A stretch of 10,777 bases of DNA. It comes from a virus. Every line of letters begins with the position of its first letter. The first letter of the stretch is position 1. The translations under genes were made by a program, and so were the position numbers. Positions 1,433-10,777 of the stretch are shown piece by piece. The stretch lies in UHGV virus genome UHGV-0117503; one strand, given 5' to 3'. The notes below the pieces were generated by a model. The model was given only the letters and a program-made list of their open reading frames with translations. It was not told where the DNA came from and made no database searches.

Positions 1433-2893
1433 ATGCATATGAACTTTTTAATTAGAGAAAGCGAAAAGAAAGCATTTGCTTTATTATTTGCAACCGCATT
1501 GCTTTTTATATATCCATTAATGCATTATGGTATATATTTTCGAGACGATCTACACAGATCTGTAACTGGATACTATGGATGGAGCGGCCTTGGTAGACCA
1601 CTCGCAGATATAGTTATAAAAGTAGCATCAGCAAGCGGAGATAGACTATTAGATATTTTCCCGTATAACTTAATACTATCTTGCGCCATGCTATCACTAG
1701 CATGTATACATATAGCTAGATTATTACAACATCTAAACATAAAGAAGCCAACGTTTTGTGCCTCATTGTTTATCTTTAATCCATTTTTTCTACAAAATCT
1801 AGCTTATAGATTTGACTCCACAGGAATGTCTTTAGCACTTCTTCTTTGTGCGCTTTCATACACCTACCAAAATAACAATATTTATATATCATTGGTAATT
1901 AAAATTTCACTTGGTGTCGCAACACTTTCACTGTATCAACCATGTGCAAATCTATTCATTGGGTTGCTATCAATCGAGCTCTCTGCATTATTCATTACTA
2001 ACAACACAAACAACAAAAAATTATTTTTAACATTAATCAAAAAAGCTGGAGTATTTTTATCATTCTACTCTATTTACTTTCTAATCGTAGCAAGAATATG
2101 GGGTTCAGAAAACAATAGATCTGAAATCGTCAAGTTAAATACAGATGGATTAAATCATATTTATAATACATTCCAAAGACTCAATACCTTGCTTGAGTCA
2201 TTTTTTAATGGTCCAGTTATTTTTTATTTTATACCACCGGTTATTTTATTATTTATTTTTATTATCCTTACCGTTTACAAAAATAGAAACAACTCGTTGG
2301 CAACCAAGATGCTTTTATTATTGCTATCATTGAGCTCGGCATATATATCTCTTCTTGGGCCGACATTTATTCTTGTTGATGCGCCCGTATTTCCAAGAAC
2401 GCTGGTAAGCTTCTCAATCCTCTTTGTTTTATTTTCCATGTATATAATTTCACTTTGTGATAAGCTAAAATGCATTGCATTAATACCTGTAGTAACAGTA
2501 ATAGCATTTAGCTCTCAATTTGCCAACGCACTGAACACCCAAAGAGAACATGAGAACTTTGTTTTAAATATGGTTGCATATGATTTAATGAATATAAATG
2601 GAATACAAAAAATTAAGACAGTGGGCAAGATAAGATTCAGTAAAAGAGCTGAATTACTCACAAATGATAAGCCTCTAATAAGCCAATCTATAAGCAGGGC
2701 TACTGAATTTCTTGCAACTTATCAAATGGTTAACAAGGGCTTGAAAGGTGTAAGCGATGGTTATGGCATAGAAAAATCCAATAAGGAAGAGTTGGACTCA
2801 TTCAAAAGCAATGGTGTTAAACCATATGTTGATAACAATGAATACTCAATATATGAAAATAATGGCGTTGCAATTGTAGTTTTTAAGGGATAA
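1433..2893 (+). CDS. GtrC-family serotype-specific O-antigen glucosyltransferase (polytopic membrane protein); type not identifiable by eye
   Basis: The 486-aa ORF lies immediately after gtrB (gtrB stop 1429-1431, ATG 1433; an alternative ATG at 1439 has AGGA 5 nt upstream). It is very AT-rich, with many hydrophobic segments and a hydrophilic C-terminal domain, which is the usual third gene of a gtr cassette. Confidence 0.75.
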   Translation: MHMNFLIRESEKKAFALLFATALLFIYPLMHYGIYFRDDLHRSVTGYYGWSGLGRPLADIVIKVASASGDRLLDIFPYNLILSCAMLSLACIHIARLLQHLNIKKPTFCASLFIFNPFFLQNLAYRFDSTGMSLALLLCALSYTYQNNNIYISLVIKISLGVATLSLYQPCANLFIGLLSIELSALFITNNTNNKKLFLTLIKKAGVFLSFYSIYFLIVARIWGSENNRSEIVKLNTDGLNHIYNTFQRLNTLLESFFNGPVIFYFIPPVILLFIFIILTVYKNRNNSLATKMLLLLLSLSSAYISLLGPTFILVDAPVFPRTLVSFSILFVLFSMYIISLCDKLKCIALIPVVTVIAFSSQFANALNTQREHENFVLNMVAYDLMNINGIQKIKTVGKIRFSKRAELLTNDKPLISQSISRATEFLATYQMVNKGLKGVSDGYGIEKSNKEELDSFKSNGVKPYVDNNEYSIYENNGVAIVVFKG

Positions 2894-2980: not shown

Positions 2981-4957
2981 TCACCTCCATTTAAACCGAG
3001 GTGAATATTCCCCGTTATTGAATCTTCCTATACTTACCTGTATTGTCGCCGGAGAATCAGAAAGAACCTCGGTGCTATGCAATGATAGTATAAGTGATGA
3101 TGATTCTATATCTCTATCTGCTTCGACCACATAACCATAATCTCGTTCTGGCTCTGTAAAATAAGCTATTGGTTTTCCGTTTGCTGCAATGGTAAATCTT
3201 CCACCAACAAATTTACCCTTGAACATAACATGTATTTTTATCCGAGTAACTCCCTTCGGTAAAACACAACCAGCATTTAATGATGCTGTAGAGTTTATAT
3301 TGAAATCTTTCCTTATCACTGTGTATGGAATTGCATATAAAGCTTCAGCAAAGTTTGATTGAGACTGATACTCTGTCGCAGCAATAGAGCTCCCCCCCAT
3401 AATTCTAAATCCTCCAACACCGGAGAACACACTATTAAAAGCATCCACAGCTTTCGTAAAGTTACCAATACAAACAGGTGTTTCTGCATCATTAATGAAT
3501 TGTTCCCTTGAATACAATGTCACACTGTTTATATATGTACTTTTATAACCACCAATATCATCAGGGCTTAAAAATCCATACCCATTGGAACCATCAGATA
3601 CGCCATTAAATTCTGTATAATAGCTACAAAATTCGTTAGATGATCTTGGAGATGTCTCAATCCATCCAAATCCAAAATTTCTCTCTGACTGAATATTGCT
3701 ATAAGTACACCCACTACTCCGCGTTATAAGGCCTGCGCCACTATAGCGCGTCGCTGAGTCTGGTGATGGGTCAAAATCACCATTGCGACCATTTGTGTGT
3801 GTACGTATACGTAAAAAACTAACAGAATTTACAGCCAAATCATCAGTTTCTCCTTGAGTAGGATAACCAATAACAACTCCGCGCCCATAGTTATCATGTG
3901 CAACTATTGTTCCAAATGAACAGAACCAAGACTGATAAACTGATATGCCGACGACACGAGCATTTATGGCTGTAATATTGTCGCAATGTGACTCATTTGT
4001 AAAATATCTAAAATAAAATCCATTTGTCGCCTTATTATCACAATCAGAAATTATATTTGTAATTCTTACTGAGCTTACATCTTCAGTTGGTGTAACTCCA
4101 ATTGGAGAGCGAGAGCATCTAATAACAGCCTTTTTAATTGCAACATCCCCAATCCATTTAATGGTTGTAGCAAATCTATTACCTGCTCGCAGAGAATTTC
4201 CATATCCTCTCATATCCAAGCCATTTGGAGGCACAAACTCATCTGTAATTCCAATAACACCAGCTGGAAGGATTAAAGGTAGTTTATTATCAGATGCGAA
4301 TTTAGCAGCACTGGTTAACTCATTAATTGAATCTTTTTCTCCATTTAAATTAACCCCCCACCATTTTAATAGAACTTCTCCATTGATATTTCGTTTCCAC
4401 CGCCTCCCAATTGCGTCAATAAGTATTGTTCCTCCATTATCTTGAGATGTAGAATCATACTTATCAATTTCAAATATTCCATTTCCACCATCAAATATAT
4501 TTCGCACACCATATACATAGCATCTATGCATATTCCCGCTATAATTTCTAATATCTTCGTAATTTGCTCCACCTATATATCCCAAACCGAAGCTTTGAGA
4601 TAATTGAACTTTAAATTGATCAGGTTCATACTTCAGCACATTCGGAAAATAAAACTGCTGAGCACCGTATGCATCATAAACAGCCATAGAATGGCCTTGC
4701 ACAGTTACGAACTTGGCAATCTGTCCGTTATATACCGGGTAACCAGCAGCGTTAATGATGATTGGTTGCGAAACAGGAACGTGAGAGCCGTCTTCGTTCT
4801 CCATATAAACCTGAATCTGGTTTTCTGGATTTACGGGGTCCGTGTCAATTTTACCGATATAAATTTTGCCATTGGCTACCGCTTTAAAAGAACGAGCCAT
4901 AGTGAAGAGTTGCGAAGGCATGCTTACCACAACATTGGCATTTATTGAATCTGTCAT
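2981..4957 (-). CDS. Tailspike protein: P22/Sf6-like head-binding N-terminal domain with a divergent receptor-binding (probable beta-helix depolymerase) domain
   Basis: The N-terminus [51 protein letters not shown]...[27 protein letters not shown] matches the conserved P22/Sf6 tailspike N-terminal domain from memory. The start is set at the internal ATG (4957..4955) that gives MTD..., not the upstream start at 5002 in the ORF track. The remaining ~540 aa are rich in G/N/S/T/I/V. Confidence 0.88.
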
Positions 4958-4982
4958 TTTAATTTCTCTATATGTTAAGCAA

Positions 4983-5016
4983 GCAATATTCATTGCTAGC
5001 ATGTTTTTTGTATAAT
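4983..5016 (+). promoter_or_regulatory. Putative sigma70 promoter for the HNH gene, in the divergent tailspike/HNH intergenic region
   Basis: A consensus TATAAT sits at 5011-5016 directly preceded by TTG, with a small palindrome GCAAT-ATTC-ATTGC at 4983-4996 upstream. No convincing -35 element at 17-bp spacing. Confidence 0.3.
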
Positions 5017-5044
5017 GAGTGAACTTTATTTAAAGGTGGTTAAC

Positions 5045-5554
5045 ATGAACTGGAACGAAGTATTCGTATTAAAAGACGATGGACTCCTGTACTGGAGTGA
5101 CCAATATCTTTCAAGACCCAAAATGTTCAATATTTCTAAAGAAAAGCCTACAGGACATATATTCAAGGACAAGAACAGGAAAACATCTTATATAATTATC
5201 AGGTATCAAGATAAAATATACGCCGCCCATAGGATAATATGGGAAATGTTTTATGGTGAAATCCCTTCAGGAATGCAAATTGACCATAAAGATGGTAATG
5301 GGTTAAATAATTCAATAGACAACCTGCGTCTAGTTAGTCTCGGTGAAAACCTAAAAAACAAATCTAAATACACAAACAATACATCTGGGTGCGCAGGTGT
5401 TTCATGGCATAAGACCCATAAAAAGTGGGTGGCATATATTAGCGACGCAGGGAAGCGCATTAATCTCGGATACTTTAAGTGTCTCGATGATGCAATTGCT
5501 GTAAGGCGTGATGCTGAAAAGACCTATGGTTATCATGAGAATCATGGTAGGTGA
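5045..5554 (+). CDS. HNH endonuclease with a C-terminal AP2-like DNA-binding domain (homing-endonuclease-like)
   Basis: Motif IDHKDGNGLNNSIDNLRLVS is HNH-like, followed by GVSWHKTHKKWVAYIS...KRINLGYFKCLDDAIAVRRDAEKTYG, which is AP2-like. The start is set at ATG 5045, which has AAGGTGG 5 nt upstream; the ORF track begins at 5015. Confidence 0.8.
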   Translation: MNWNEVFVLKDDGLLYWSDQYLSRPKMFNISKEKPTGHIFKDKNRKTSYIIIRYQDKIYAAHRIIWEMFYGEIPSGMQIDHKDGNGLNNSIDNLRLVSLGENLKNKSKYTNNTSGCAGVSWHKTHKKWVAYISDAGKRINLGYFKCLDDAIAVRRDAEKTYGYHENHGR

Positions 5555-5685
5555 TATCTGACATTTCATTGCTCCAGACGAATGATATGATGCAACCATG
5601 ATGTGATTGCATACCGAAATGGTACTATTGAGTATTTATCCAGTAGGTTACGATGCCATTCCACCCAACTGGTGAGGCATCAAGG

Positions 5686-5946
5686 ATGTACAGCAAATAC
5701 GACGAGGCGCAGTTTCACTTGAGACTTCCGCATGAACTCCACGCGAAAATTAAACAGCGCGCGAAGATGAATAACAGGTCGCTGAACTCAGAGATAATTG
5801 CAGCGATTGAAGAATCATTGGCTAAACAAAGCTCTGCATCAGTTTACATTGACGATGCAGAGCGTATGGCAGAACAACAATCTGATATGGTTAAGAAAAT
5901 TGTCTTTGATACGCTCAAAGAGCTATATAAAAAAGACAGCAGCTAA
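5686..5946 (+). CDS. mnt: Mnt-like ribbon-helix-helix repressor (P22 immI-type)
   Basis: The C-terminal half DDAERMAEQQSDMVKKIVFDTLKELYKKDSS closely matches P22 Mnt (...NDAERLADEQSELVKKMVFDTLKDLYKK) as I recall it, and the N-terminal region FHLRLPHELHAKIKQRAKMNNRSLNSEI is RHH-like. The start is set at ATG 5686 (GAGG 8 nt upstream), not the track start at 5653. Confidence 0.8.
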   Translation: MYSKYDEAQFHLRLPHELHAKIKQRAKMNNRSLNSEIIAAIEESLAKQSSASVYIDDAERMAEQQSDMVKKIVFDTLKELYKKDSS

Positions 5947-5966: not shown

Positions 5967-6044
5967 ATGCAAAGAGATATGCTGAATATTGCGTTCTACA
6001 TATTTGGTTTTTGCACGTTCCTGGTGTTTGCGAAGCTATTCTGA
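5967..6044 (+). CDS. Hypothetical 25-aa hydrophobic peptide (possible single-pass membrane protein)
   Basis: GGAGGA at 5958-5963 is followed by ATG at 5967. The ORF encodes MQRDMLNIAFYIFGFCTFLVFAKLF and stops at TGA 6042-6044, 21 nt after mnt on the same strand. It is absent from the ORF track because of its size; it is unproven. Confidence 0.25.
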   Translation: MQRDMLNIAFYIFGFCTFLVFAKLF

Positions 6045-7199
6045 CAACGCATCAGACTTGGCACCTTGAGTCAGGGCGTTAATGGCCTTTTGCGCCTGCT
6101 GCATGGCTTTCTCAAACGCTGTTGATCCGCGTGGGGTGTTTGCCATTCGGAGCATTGCATTTCTGAATGGCTCGCTCTCATAGGCGCGAGTAAGAAGTCC
6201 GTAGCTTACCGCTGCGCCAGTTGTCGCCGGGTTCATTGCCGTCCCATATCCGATAATGAACGGGATGGTTTGCTGCCCTGTTGGTGTTGTTACTGCTGCT
6301 TTTGCAGCCTGCTGCGTGGATTGCAGGTAGTTTTTCAATCCTTTCAGATAAGCGGCTTCATGACCTTTAAATGTGATGCCAGTCTGGTTTTGCAGGATAT
6401 TAAGCTGCCGAAGGAACTGGTCAGGGGATCCGCCAGATTTCTCCATCGCCTTTCCAATGATGCCATTGCGCATTTGCGCCCTGCCAACACGACCAACTGA
6501 GTTATACAGCGTCTTAATTTCAGATTTGTTCTTGCTGAATAGCATGTTGTTGACAACTTCCGGCGTCAGGTCGCCTTTCATGAGAACATTCTTCAGCCTG
6601 GTATTCTTTAGTTTCGCCGCTTCGTCAGCGTAGACGGCATTGGCCTGCTGATATTTACGAAGAGTATCATTGCCAAGATTCTGACCAATGGCACCATTGA
6701 TATCGTCGGTCATCGCCTTGTAAACTCGCTGAATGGCAGCATCGGAACGGTTTGGTAACACTGGTCGCTCACCCTTCACGTCCATTCTGAACTGGCTGCG
6801 CAGATCGCTTAATTGCTTCAAATCCAGATTGACCGGACCATCAGGACCAGCATTGCGAACAAGCTCATCACGATATGACTGAAGTTTTGAAATAGTCTCG
6901 TTATCAGCCACCTTACCAAGCTTCTGCAGATTAGATATCTCAGTATCAATCTGCTGAATTGCTCGCGCAGGCTGAATGTTTACTCCAGCCATAGCATTCT
7001 GAACCTGCTCCAGTCGATTACCGGCGGCACGCCGAATTCCTGATGTTTTCGCTTTAAGGCTGTCAATAACAACTGCCGGATCGTACTCGCCGAATTTATC
7101 AGCAAATCTCTGCACCAACTGACTTCTCGCTTCCTGTTGCGTTGCTCTCATTCCGCTTGTGCCAGCCAGGGGGATATTTTCTGCTGTGGTCTGCGCCAT
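6036..7199 (-). CDS. Virion ejection/internal protein, probably the C-terminal part of the lytic-transglycosylase protein encoded upstream (387-aa ORF)
   Basis: Long ORF in the late-gene orientation. Its frame is open upstream of the ATG at 7199 as far as a stop at 7334..7332 and reads protein-like there (GAIAPEAQQAIRFAEREGVPLHTTDLLQPTSRVGK). It overlaps the upstream ORF by 52 nt. Confidence 0.6.
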   Translation of the reverse strand: MAQTTAENIPLAGTSGMRATQQEARSQLVQRFADKFGEYDPAVVIDSLKAKTSGIRRAAGNRLEQVQNAMAGVNIQPARAIQQIDTEISNLQKLGKVADNETISKLQSYRDELVRNAGPDGPVNLDLKQLSDLRSQFRMDVKGERPVLPNRSDAAIQRVYKAMTDDINGAIGQNLGNDTLRKYQQANAVYADEAAKLKNTRLKNVLMKGDLTPEVVNNMLFSKNKSEIKTLYNSVGRVGRAQMRNGIIGKAMEKSGGSPDQFLRQLNILQNQTGITFKGHEAAYLKGLKNYLQSTQQAAKAAVTTPTGQQTIPFIIGYGTAMNPATTGAAVSYGLLTRAYESEPFRNAMLRMANTPRGSTAFEKAMQQAQKAINALTQGAKSDALSE

Positions 7200-8413
7200 T
7201 TTCCCGACGCGGGAAGTAGGCTGTAACAGGTCTGTGGTGTGCAGAGGAACTCCTTCACGCTCTGCAAATCTGATAGCCTGCTGCGCTTCTGGCGCAATAG
7301 CACCACGAACGCCACGATACGTCCGGCAGCGTTAATAGCACCGCCAGCCAACACACCAACGCCTAAATCGGTGGCGAGTGCTTCCGCATCATCTTTCGCA
7401 CTATTTGCAGCAAGTGATCCAACTGCGTTTTCAGCGAGAAGGCGAGTTGCCCCCTGAGCAATTCGACCAGCAAGTGTTGGTGCCTGTGTTGCCGCTCTCT
7501 CAACGCCAGCAGGAGTGAGGTAAGGCAACGCTTCAGCAAATACCCTTCCCTCTGTCGTTTGTGGAGTCAGCGCGCCTTGCTGAAGGCCAAAGTCCTGCTC
7601 TAATCCCTGCGTTGTTACTCGTGGCGCTGGTTGATATGTACCATCGCCAATGCCGAGTTTACCGCCAGCCCAAGCCGCCGCGCTTGTTACAGCATCAGTG
7701 AGTTCAGCAGGTATGTTCGCTACGTTGATTCCTGCCTGTAGTAAGCCGCGCCCGGTTTCAGCAAGTCCATTACCAAGGTCAGACATTATTCCGCCTTGTT
7801 GCTGAACAGGTTTCGGTGCGACAGAACTTACGGGTTGAGGTGGCTGCTGACTGGCTGCCTGCTGCTCAATCTGAGCAAATGGATTATTTGGGTCTGACTG
7901 CACACCTGATGCCGATACTTGTTCGGATGACTGTACTTCCAGTTGTGCAAACGGGTTGTTAGGGTCTTGCTGAGGATGTACCTTTGCAGAGGTGGCGCGC
8001 TGTTCGACTGTTGAGTCTGTCACCGGGTCACCCGCCCATTGAGCAAAGCGATCATCAACGTAACCGCGGCCTTCAGGTCCTGGCGTATATTCACCACGCT
8101 TTGCCTTCATAACGTTGCCGGGACCGTCGTGATAAGCCTGAAGAGCGTCACGCCAGTTACCAAACTGCTGGTACATCTTTGCCAGATAGCGCGCGCCAGC
8201 GTCAGCCTGATATTCGGGGTTTTGCATTTGCTCATCGGTATAACCCATATCACGCCATGTCCCAGGCATGACCTGAGTCAATCCTACAGCCCCGGCGGAG
8301 CTTACTGCGGCAGGGTTGTAAGAAGACTCCTTGGCACCCAGTGCAGTCATCAACCCTTCTGGCACACCGTAACGTGCGCCAGCCTGCTCTAACAAATCAC
8401 GGTAATTAGCCAT
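7148..8413 (-). CDS. Virion ejection/internal protein with an N-terminal lytic transglycosylase (SLT) domain; the last ~55 codons of this frame are probably out of frame
   Basis: N-terminal GAKESSYNPAAVSSAGAVGLTQVMPGTW...YLAKMY is a classic SLT catalytic-region signature. A Q/P-rich linker carries a duplicated DPNNPFAQ motif. The C-terminal stretch of this frame (RIVAFVVLLRQKRSRLSDLQSVKEFLCTPQTCYSLLPASGKWRRPQQ...) looks like non-coding translation. Confidence 0.75.
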   Translation of the reverse strand: MANYRDLLEQAGARYGVPEGLMTALGAKESSYNPAAVSSAGAVGLTQVMPGTWRDMGYTDEQMQNPEYQADAGARYLAKMYQQFGNWRDALQAYHDGPGNVMKAKRGEYTPGPEGRGYVDDRFAQWAGDPVTDSTVEQRATSAKVHPQQDPNNPFAQLEVQSSEQVSASGVQSDPNNPFAQIEQQAASQQPPQPVSSVAPKPVQQQGGIMSDLGNGLAETGRGLLQAGINVANIPAELTDAVTSAAAWAGGKLGIGDGTYQPAPRVTTQGLEQDFGLQQGALTPQTTEGRVFAEALPYLTPAGVERAATQAPTLAGRIAQGATRLLAENAVGSLAANSAKDDAEALATDLGVGVLAGGAINAAGRIVAFVVLLRQKRSRLSDLQSVKEFLCTPQTCYSLLPASGKWRRPQQKISPWLAQAE

Positions 8414-9211
8414 TTACTGCCCCAAAGATGGAAGATATCCGTAGCGATTAATGAAGTCGATTGACAGCTCGGGGTGCTGCTTCAGGTAATCTATAGAAGC
8501 CTGAGGCGCTTCCACTCGCTTGATACCGTTTTGCTGAACGTACTTACCAACCGCCTCATTACGCTTCTGGTTGAGCGTGTTCAGGATGACGCCAGCGTTG
8601 CGACGAAAGGACTCCTCGCTCTGCGAGTTCTGCAGCGAACCAACAGCCTGGTCGAGCTTTTTGCCCTCGGCATCAGAAAGTGCGCCCATGCCTCGCATGG
8701 CCTGAACCGCTGTCAGGTATGCTTGTGATTTAAAGGTATCAAGTCGTGCCTGAGTGTCTGCAGCCTGTGAGCCTGGAACGTTGGGGATTACTCCACGTAA
8801 GCCTGTAATGCTCTTAAGTGAAGGAGAACTAACGATATCGTTCAGAGTGAACATGCTGGTTGTGAGGGTGTTGATGCCGTCTTTGTAGCCATCATTTAGC
8901 GCTTGCTGCTTCTGCTGCAACTGCTGGTTGTTGGCTGCTATGCGGCTCTGTATTTCCTGGCGCTTCAGGTCGTTAGTTTCTGCTGATAGCATCCGGTCAA
9001 GGCGCTTATTTTCGTTGTTAATGCGGTTTGTTTCTGCGTCCAGATTAATGCGCTGCTGACCTAAATTCGCCTGGATATCTTGCCCGCGCATTGTGATTGC
9101 CTGATTCCGAGCGGCGGTTTGCGAATCCAGATCCTGACCGCGCATGGTAACCTGGCGACCCTGCATTTTATCCTGTAGGTCAAAGTATTTTTCGGGTCCG
9201 AGACTGTTCAT
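8414..9211 (-). CDS. Virion ejection/internal protein (265 aa) with a Q-rich coiled-coil-like region
   Basis: Its start ATG overlaps the stop of the upstream gene (ATGA at 9208-9211), and its stop TAA (8416..8414) directly abuts the ATG of the SLT protein. The content RIAANNQQLQQKQQALNDGYKDG is typical of phage internal proteins. It sits between the gene-7 and gene-16 positions of P22. Confidence 0.7.
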   Translation of the reverse strand: MNSLGPEKYFDLQDKMQGRQVTMRGQDLDSQTAARNQAITMRGQDIQANLGQQRINLDAETNRINNENKRLDRMLSAETNDLKRQEIQSRIAANNQQLQQKQQALNDGYKDGINTLTTSMFTLNDIVSSPSLKSITGLRGVIPNVPGSQAADTQARLDTFKSQAYLTAVQAMRGMGALSDAEGKKLDQAVGSLQNSQSEESFRRNAGVILNTLNQKRNEAVGKYVQQNGIKRVEAPQASIDYLKQHPELSIDFINRYGYLPSLGQ

Positions 9212-9732
9212 CCCAGGTGATCGAACTGCCGCGGGTTCTGTTGGTACATCTGAGCGACGTCCTGAGGATTAACGCCAACACGAGCTAACTCACCGGCGTT
9301 GTTTTGCAGCCATGATTGCATTGCTTCTGGAGACGATGACGCAAGGCGTGCGCCAGCCGCTAAGGTGCCGATAGAATTACGCTGATCTTCATCAATGAAT
9401 CCCATGCCTTTACGAACGGATTCAATCTGGTCTGGATATTGAGTAGCCAACTGACGCAAAGCACTGCGATCACCAGACGCATAAGCATTAGCGTACGCCT
9501 GCTGAAATTCTTTCTGCCGCTGAGCCTGCTTTTCCTGCTGAAACACCCCTGCAATACCTGAAAGGCCTTGCAAAGCAGTCAGCCCAACATTGTTAGCGCC
9601 TGAACGCTCAATATCATTGTTCTGCCTGATAAGCTGAAGCGTATTGCCGATGTCATTTACGCTCGGAGCGTTTGAGTTGACGCCGCCGATACCAGCCAAC
9701 AATCCGCCGTTTGTTCCTTGCCAAGTAGCCAT
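9208..9732 (-). CDS. Virion ejection/internal protein (174 aa)
   Basis: ATG at 9732..9730 has AAGGGG upstream. The product is G/A/Q/N-rich, and the gene is tightly coupled to its neighbours on both sides. Confidence 0.7.
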   Translation of the reverse strand: MATWQGTNGGLLAGIGGVNSNAPSVNDIGNTLQLIRQNNDIERSGANNVGLTALQGLSGIAGVFQQEKQAQRQKEFQQAYANAYASGDRSALRQLATQYPDQIESVRKGMGFIDEDQRNSIGTLAAGARLASSSPEAMQSWLQNNAGELARVGVNPQDVAQMYQQNPRQFDHLG

Positions 9733-9741
9733 GATTACCCC

Positions 9742-10434
9742 TTAAAACAACGAGCCAAGCAATCCGATACCAGCACCAATGCCAGCGCCCCAAGGCGTTG
9801 ATGTTCCCAAAAGGCTGGCAAGACCTGCACCGGCAATCGCACCAGACGTGCCACCGCTAATTGCTGTCTGAAGACTTGATGGTTTATTGGCATTAGCAGC
9901 GGAAAGAGCTGCGCTTTGCTGTGCAATGCTGCTCATGTTGTTGGCGTACGTCTGCCCGGCGTTTGCCTGACCTTGCAGCGCACCAAGCCCAACGTTTGCC
10001 AGATTGTTGTAATTGCTCATCTGATTTGATAACCAAGACTGACCGAGTGTCGGCGCGATCGTAGCCAGTTGATTGCTTGTGGCTGTCGAACCAAGTCCAC
10101 CCGTCGCCTCCGCAGCAGCAAGACTCTGGTAACGCGCCTGCCCTGCAAGGTCTTTATACTGCTGAGAGTTGTAATACTGATTAAGTGCCTGCCCCTGACC
10201 TTCTAAACTGGAAAGGTTCTGAAGCTGGTTAACATACTGCTCCGCAAGCGGCGTGAACGGAGCAAGGTTTTTCATGATCGTCTGCCACTGCTGATTTTGC
10301 AGGTCTGCGGCATACTTCTGAGCTTCTGCTGCATACTTTGCGCTTTTATCAGAGCTACCACCTTTCCCGCCTTTTTCAGGGCACCAAGGTTCCTCGCCGC
10401 GCAGTTTTCTGCCCAGCTTAAATGCATATAACAT
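9742..10434 (-). CDS. gp7-like ejection protein (P22 gene 7 family)
   Basis: The 230-aa ORF begins MLYAFKLGRKLRGEEP..., which matches the start of P22 gp7 (229 aa) as I remember it. It has GGGAGA upstream of its ATG and a G/A-rich hydrophobic C-terminus ...GAGIGAGIGLLGSLF. Confidence 0.75.
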   Translation of the reverse strand: MLYAFKLGRKLRGEEPWCPEKGGKGGSSDKSAKYAAEAQKYAADLQNQQWQTIMKNLAPFTPLAEQYVNQLQNLSSLEGQGQALNQYYNSQQYKDLAGQARYQSLAAAEATGGLGSTATSNQLATIAPTLGQSWLSNQMSNYNNLANVGLGALQGQANAGQTYANNMSSIAQQSAALSAANANKPSSLQTAISGGTSGAIAGAGLASLLGTSTPWGAGIGAGIGLLGSLF

Positions 10435-10436
10435 GG

Positions 10437-10777
10437 CTATCTCCCGTGATTCAGGAAGTCGATTAGTTCTTCGCGTGTGGCGCTATAAAAAGTCACGTCA
10501 TCCACGCCTTTAAAGTATTTCTTGATGGTTCCGACACGCTTAAGGCCAATCATTGCGCAGTACATCTGACCGTGGCGGAATTTGCGCGCAGCGAACGATG
10601 TGACGCACTGAACGGTGGTGTTAGTAAGAATGTATCGCCAGAACGCCAGCCCGATTTCCTTGCTGAATCCACGAACCTCTGGCAGGTACATGGCGTGGCA
10701 ATCAAAGGTCAAAGGCTGAATCTCCTGATAGTAAACAATGCCGCCGAACTGCCCGTGCACGTTCACCTCGAAGTAAC
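10437..10777 (-). CDS. Virion protein at the position of P22 gene 14, 5'-partial (runs off the window end)
   Basis: The frame is open to the last base of the window (...YFEVNVHGQFGG...). The first in-window start is a GTG, so the real start is probably outside. It stops at TAG 10439..10437, 2 nt before the gp7-like ATG. The gp14 assignment is by position only. Confidence 0.55.
   Translation of the reverse strand, partial: YFEVNVHGQFGGIVYYQEIQPLTFDCHAMYLPEVRGFSKEIGLAFWRYILTNTTVQCVTSFAARKFRHGQMYCAMIGLKRVGTIKKYFKGVDDVTFYSATREELIDFLNHGR

Follow-up and report, generated by a model that had tools for sequence, protein, structure and literature searches.

An O81-associated GtrC-type O-antigen glucosyltransferase gene in the right arm of a P22-like Escherichia coli prophage

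The window analyzed here, i.e., the whole 10,777-nucleotide stretch of the virus genome UHGV-0117503, corresponds to the right arm of an E. coli prophage of the P22-like kind. On its plus strand, a remnant of gtrA (248–510), the gene for the flippase of undecaprenyl-phosphate-linked glucose (Und-P-glucose), and an intact gtrB (520–1431) are followed directly by an intact gtrC-type O-antigen glucosyltransferase gene (1433–2893); relatives carry an intact gtrA-gtrB-gtrC cassette. Beyond an inverted repeat (2923–2960) lies the convergent P22-type tailspike gene on the minus strand (2981–4957). The arm continues with an HNH endonuclease gene (5015–5554), an Arc/Mnt repressor gene (5653–5946), and the genes for the DNA-ejection proteins (6036–10766).

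An ATG-to-stop open reading frame (ORF) of 486 aa in the ORF listing fills positions 1433–2893 of the plus strand exactly. At its composition, approximately 7.6% of random codons would be stops, and the chance of 486 open codons is about 2e-17, which bears out the first-pass annotation in treating this frame as a genuine gene. Translation likely begins at the second ATG (1439), giving a protein of 484 aa, which is also the start annotated in RefSeq; the motif AGGA (1430–1433) lies 5 nt upstream of this codon, and the TAG stop of gtrB (1429–1431) lies just ahead of gtrC. The encoded protein differs from the common allele at a single residue, Ser159 in place of Leu, at a variable transmembrane position, and a 100% identical GtrC is found in E. 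coli SCPM-O-B-8794, in which gtrA is intact and this HNH gene is present as well.

The G+C content of the ORF, which had been put by eye at roughly 30%, is 32.3%. The accompanying description of the gene as far more AT-rich than its neighbors is accurate relative to the DNA-ejection genes (49.5–54.7% G+C) but not relative to the flanking gtrB and the tailspike ORF (2981–5002), which have 37.7% G+C each. The further suggestion that AT-richness marks a separate, independent acquisition was rejected, as the seven other third-position, type-specific gtr genes compared all fall between 27.6 and 33.4% G+C; low G+C is a trait of type-specific gtr genes as a class and is therefore uninformative about the history of this one. 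A better sign of cassette exchange is the break in DNA homology, in that the similarity to gtrAB of K-12, SfII, SfV, and P22 (75–85% identity) stops at positions 1424–1429, i.e., at the gtrB/gtrC junction.

GtrB is a bactoprenol (Und-P) glucosyltransferase of family GT2, which matches Pfam Glycos_transf_2 (E 2.5e-31) and the GtrB family of PHROG (E 1.6e-177) and has amino acid identities of 90% to K-12 YfdH, 89% to GtrB of SfII and SfV, and 86% to GtrB of P22. Because of this 86–90% identity to known bactoprenol glucosyltransferases, the lipid-linked donor is almost certainly Und-P-glucose. The genes gtrA and gtrB also lie directly upstream in 16 of the 19 loci of other Enterobacterales that encode a GtrC homologue (25–44% identity), which makes this linkage a family-wide trait. 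On the other side of gtrC, the inverted repeat, with 14-bp arms (2923–2936 and 2947–2960) and a 10-nt loop, occupies the gap between the convergent gtrC and tailspike genes, where it probably terminates transcription in both directions; for the intergenic RNA, the folding energy is −24.0 kcal/mol on the plus strand and −27.7 kcal/mol on the minus strand, with the 14-bp hairpin dominating the fold. A consensus terminator scan flagged nothing between the two genes since the hairpin has neither a T-run nor a G+C-rich stem; it was found by eye and by folding.

The left end of the window is foreign. Positions 1 to approximately 247–265 (57% G+C) are part of a NIF3-like gene whose product is 99–100% identical to ENA metagenome proteins with Bacteroidales metagenome-assembled genomes as their named relatives. 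This fragment runs in frame into mid-gtrA at a shared 20-nt stretch, TCTATGCCGCGCACACCAAT, which encodes YAAHTN in both genes. As assembly chimeras typically show such a stretch that fits either gene, the junction is most likely an artifact of metagenome assembly. Exact-pattern scans did not find the junction in metagenome contigs or the foreign 5' fragment in genome contigs. Because the left end is foreign, the integrase side of the prophage is absent from the window.

The junction removes the first ~108 nt of gtrA along with its promoter, which leaves the window without a gtr promoter, as is evident from alignment with the intact gtrA of E. coli ECCHD184 and of a Logan contig. In the same alignment, an 8-bp deletion near position 443 shifts the frame of the last ~22 gtrA codons; what remains is recognized by Pfam GtrA_DPMS_TM on the 3' part of ORF 91–510. 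Since gtrA is both truncated and frameshifted, activity in this window would depend on another GtrA and a promoter. Relative to intact relatives, a 16-bp deletion (~7320) splits the lytic-transglycosylase (gp16-like) ejection gene into ORFs 6036–7199 and 7148–8413, and deletions of 1 bp and 12 bp (~9212–9222) split the next ejection gene into ORFs 8414–9211 and 9208–9732. These deletions break the frame, and the ejection genes therefore appear as split ORFs. The deletions at ~443, ~7320, and ~9212–9222 represent either prophage decay or assembly errors, whereas gtrB, gtrC, and the tailspike gene are intact.

The tailspike gene encodes a head-binding domain (Pfam Head_binding, E 8e-65) and a receptor-binding domain. 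Its true start is Met16 of the 673-aa ORF, and the protein is 98–99% identical to the 657-aa tailspikes that adjoin the same gtrC elsewhere. The receptor-binding part (2981–4600, minus strand) has no close phage relative, the best phage match, from Acinetobacter phage 3073b-K32, being a tailspike with 39% identity across 66% of the query. The HNH gene between the tailspike gene and mnt/arc encodes HNH_3 and AP2-like domains at 37% G+C; the prophages of 23CRST042 and SCPM-O-B-8794 carry it, whereas those of no107 and FHI_NMBU_03 and the Logan contig lack it, and this patchy presence is thus that of a mobile homing-type insertion.

Carriage by a temperate phage is seen in the tailspike, mnt/arc, and ejection genes of the window and in complete genomes, where the cassette comes after intS at argW, except in one lineage with the cassette near thrW. 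E. coli no107 (NZ_CP075374.1) contains one P22-like prophage in two copies, each with gtrABC, at argW, approximately 38 kb apart, one of them with many frameshifted genes, which is either a tandem lysogen or an assembly artifact. In the horse isolate E. coli SWYHX138.261ft, gtrABC and a truncated tailspike gene lie near thrW/proA between an IS30-family element and IS1, i.e., the cassette has been kept while the remaining phage is gone, and ECCHD184 holds a similar IS1-truncated remnant at argW. Upstream of the intact gtrA of ECCHD184 (positions 10579–10728 of locus L001, outside the window), a single GATCGATC is present, as opposed to the two pairs of spaced GATC sites upstream of P22 gtrA; this four-GATC Dam/OxyR layout is absent from the relatives with an intact cassette. 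With a single GATCGATC, P22-style Dam/OxyR phase variation may not apply.

At the protein level, GtrC matches PF14264 (Glucos_trans_II, 'Glucosyl transferase GtrII') with 96.6 bits against a gathering cut-off of 30, covering model positions 11–316 of 317, and PHROG 4829, 'GtrC-like O-antigen conversion', over its full length (E 1e-63). A sequence search of the PDB gave no match at E ≤ 1, and NCBIfam has no model for the protein. Hydropathy analysis places recurrent hydrophobic 19-residue windows between residues 12 and 367, so that the transmembrane helices looked for in a GtrC protein are present and repeated; a hydrophilic tail of approximately 120 residues follows the membrane segments. In an alignment of 19 homologues reaching down to 23% identity, Asp38, Asp39, Arg42, Arg55, Asn116, Pro117, Asn122, Tyr125, Asp128, Leu165, Tyr168, Gln169, Arg322, and Glu374 are invariant. 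The AlphaFold model, for which 17 of the 19 aligned homologue sequences served as input, is confident (pLDDT 88.4, pTM 0.88) and has a GT-C fold with acidic residues in the first predicted external loop, which is where the catalytic acidic residues of GT-C enzymes are located.

Based on the model helices and the positive-inside rule, we propose a topology with a cytoplasmic N-terminus, approximately 11 helices, and an external C-terminus. The density of Lys and Arg is 0.19 for the loops placed in the cytoplasm and 0.095 for the short loops placed in the periplasm, the sidedness following from the positive-inside rule only. Under this topology, Asp38 and Asp39 would sit in the first external loop, and all of the invariant polar residues would be periplasmic. 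The assignment to the GtrC class, which had been made from the sequence at first sight, is thus supported by gene position and order, PF14264, PHROG 4829, the predicted membrane topology, and the GT-C fold. The gene is an intact, ordinary, uncharacterized new member of the GtrC/PF14264 family and not a new kind of system.

The proteins compared directly were those of SfI, SfII, SfIV, SfV, P22, and the CPS-53 region of K-12, a set outside which lie GtrX, GtrIc, and the Salmonella GtrC families other than that of P22. Within this set, GtrC does not appear close in sequence to any characterized type, i.e., GtrI, GtrII, GtrIV, GtrV, YfdI, or P22 GtrC; the first five show no significant pairwise similarity to it (pairwise BLASTP E > 0.2), and the best match among them, P22 GtrC, shares 27.5% identity (E 4e-32). 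That no known Gtr type could be assigned by eye is therefore borne out, and near-identity to one of the characterized types compared was not found. P22 GtrC nevertheless has several features in common with the protein: it is also a PF14264 protein of 486 aa, its gene (31.8% G+C against 32.3%) follows gtrA-gtrB and converges with the tailspike gene, and an annotated terminator/hairpin occupies the same gap. It differs in its sequence and serves another host and O antigen. SfII GtrII, the namesake of PF14264, resembles the protein in passing this model, in its length of 486 aa, and in the low G+C and third cassette position of its gene; however, BLASTP and phmmer give no significant pairwise similarity, and the relation is visible at the profile level only.

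YfdI, GtrI, GtrIV, and GtrV share the Gtr pathway logic and low G+C with the present gene but have no detectable similarity to it, and none passes PF14264; they are distinct GT-C lineages, probably analogous or very remotely related. In most carriers, the gene occupies the same slot after intS-yfdG-yfdH that yfdI has in the K-12 CPS-53 prophage at argW. A tblastn search of 50,697 phage records returned no match above 34.7% identity and none in a record named as a Shigella phage; the putative GtrC of Hafnia phage vB_HpaM_Meifeng is 34% identical and passes PF14264. In a collection of 5.8 billion sequences, the closest proteins are a metagenome protein (57%) and one from Pseudocitrobacter faecalis (56%), both uncharacterized. 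Unnamed homologues occur in Pseudocitrobacter (56%), Yokenella and Serratia (44%), and Citrobacter, with gtrA-gtrB upstream where the context was read. As the closest relatives, including that of Meifeng, are uncharacterized and all below 60% identity, no specificity can be transferred from them.

The distribution of the gene points to the O81 antigen. Among 5,426 complete E. coli genomes, gtrC is present in nine, at an identity of at least 99.6%. One of these carriers, ECCHD184, has an O-antigen cluster labeled O81 by PGAP, and its wzy is found in only 11 genomes, eight of which carry gtrC (Fisher p = 8e-23, a nominal value that takes no account of phylogeny). The carriers span several core backgrounds and two integration sites. 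Of the remaining O81 genomes, two have neither gtrC nor the tailspike, and in KSC207 the tailspike is present but gtrABC is not. Within the 90% cluster, the member that is most widespread (244 contigs) goes under the name 'E. coli O81:H27' in one source. The tailspike's receptor-binding part follows the same pattern, being found, among the E. coli genomes, in exactly the nine gtrC carriers and in the O81 strain KSC207, in whose prophage the tailspike gene comes directly after intS and the last 44 bp of gtrC are kept. The two genes can thus be recognized as an apparent linked gtrC-tailspike module.

The ninth carrier, FHI_NMBU_03 (NZ_CP019455.1), matches an O81 strain exactly in its core flanks but has no detectable O81 wzy. 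It was rejected as a counter-example to the O81 link since, in addition to these flanks, the usual site holds no O-antigen region: yeeN is separated from wzxC by an IS3-family pseudogene alone, an order that leaves out, at their usual place, the his operon, wzzB, ugd, gnd, the O-antigen cluster, galF, and wcaK-M. Deletion, rearrangement, or misassembly at an IS could account for this gap.

P22-like tailspikes bind the O antigen of the host. The co-distribution of the tailspike with O81 therefore indicates a phage of O81 hosts, whose gtr cargo would most plausibly act on O81 as well; by the same token, the tailspike is a candidate O81-specific depolymerase. The genome distribution makes the O unit of E. 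coli O81 the most likely acceptor of GtrC. A 2018 article by Zdorovenko et al., going by its title as given in the reference lists of two open papers, reportedly describes an O81 variant, HS3-104, that differs by glucosylation of the O antigen; its abstract is also said to place a gtr cluster elsewhere in the HS3-104 genome, which was not used as evidence here. The GtrC described here is the obvious candidate enzyme for the glucosylated O81 of that strain. HS3-104 is a horse isolate, and two of the gtrC carriers are also from horses. The specificity, noted at first as unknown, can thus be narrowed to O81 as the likely target, given the occurrence of gtrC in eight of the 11 O81 genomes.

In the Gtr model, GtrB makes Und-P-Glc, GtrA flips it, and a third, serotype-specific protein glucosylates the O unit in the periplasm (PMC7685785). 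Modeled on the established Shigella and Salmonella system, GtrB of this cassette would use UDP-glucose to charge undecaprenyl phosphate with glucose on the cytoplasmic side of the membrane, GtrA would flip the Und-P-glucose to the other side, and GtrC would there, in the periplasm, attach the glucose to a single defined sugar within the O-antigen repeat. Catalysis may involve Asp38, Asp39, and Arg42 after the first transmembrane helix, along with the other conserved residues of the periplasmic side. With the O81 O unit as the most likely acceptor, the product would be the glucosylated O81 variant that the HS3-104 title reports, and this modification would probably block re-adsorption through the phage's own tailspike, i.e., superinfection exclusion. 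We put at roughly 80% the probability of this overall reading, in which GtrC is a PF14264 GT-C membrane transferase, carried as lysogenic-conversion cargo by a P22-like prophage, that glucosylates most likely O81 and probably blocks re-adsorption. A further proposition, toward which we lean only slightly, is that the glucosylated O81 made by gtrC is the common natural form, to whose plain counterpart the tailspike adsorbs before gtrC excludes phages of its own kind; since eight of the 11 complete genomes with O81 carry gtrC, glucosylated O81 would be commoner than the unbranched structure of the type strain.

Three other explanations bear on parts of this reading. The damage in the window raises the question of whether the cassette is a dead remnant in the sampled organism, with gtrC open but non-functional. 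The truncated and frameshifted gtrA, the missing promoter, and the split of both large ejection genes would fit such a state, as would the IS-truncated prophage remnants in several other gtrC carriers. The loss at the left end is, however, most likely the work of an assembly chimera, given the 20-nt shared stretch and the Bacteroidales-like NIF3 part, while gtrB, gtrC, and the tailspike gene are intact and gtrC is one residue away from its commonest allele. Moreover, the gtr cassette is the very part that remnant prophages have kept, which suggests selection for it. We therefore regard a dead cassette as unlikely, and it would concern expression in one sample rather than the identity of the gene.

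The association with O81 is correlative, and a functional GtrC could also act on an acceptor other than the O81 O unit, such as a different O antigen or some other surface glycan, the link then reflecting phage host range or shared ancestry of the carriers. The presence of gtrC in FHI_NMBU_03 without a detectable O81 wzy is compatible with this, and so is the mosaic nature of gtr cassettes, the present one losing its homology to others precisely where gtrB meets gtrC. Shared ancestry, however, sits poorly with the several core backgrounds and two integration sites of the carriers, and FHI_NMBU_03 has the flanks of an O81 strain. P22-like phages adsorb via the O antigen, and in the characterized cases, those of P22 and the Shigella phages, the gtr cargo modifies that same antigen; with the strict co-occurrence of tailspike and gtrC and a glucosylated O81 variant on record, at least by title, a different acceptor seems quite improbable. 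As for the transfer itself, database labels such as 'GtrC-like O-antigen conversion translocase' would allow a protein that moves a sugar other than glucose or is no transferase at all. 'Translocase' is a legacy label, though; the partner GtrB, at 89–90% identity to bactoprenol glucosyltransferases, would fix the donor as Und-P-glucose, and the modeled GtrC shows the fold of a GT-C transferase, its first predicted external loop bearing invariant acidic residues, which together make this notion barely credible.

For approximately half of the O antigens of E. coli that bear a glucose side-branch, no matching transferase is present among the genes of the O-antigen cluster, and such side-branches are assumed to depend on prophage gtr genes (PMC7685785). 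Few prophage gtrC genes have so far been tied to a serogroup. Beyond its O81 link, the present gene is a routine example of a well-understood Gtr system; what is new is the occurrence of gtrC tied to O81 and a tailspike with the same distribution, an assignment that would add less if the 2018 HS3-104 paper already names this gtrC. The O81 link of gtrC and tailspike is nonetheless specific, testable, and cheap to check. It would help sequence-based serotyping to tell glucosylated from plain O81, and the tailspike is a candidate O81-specific reagent.
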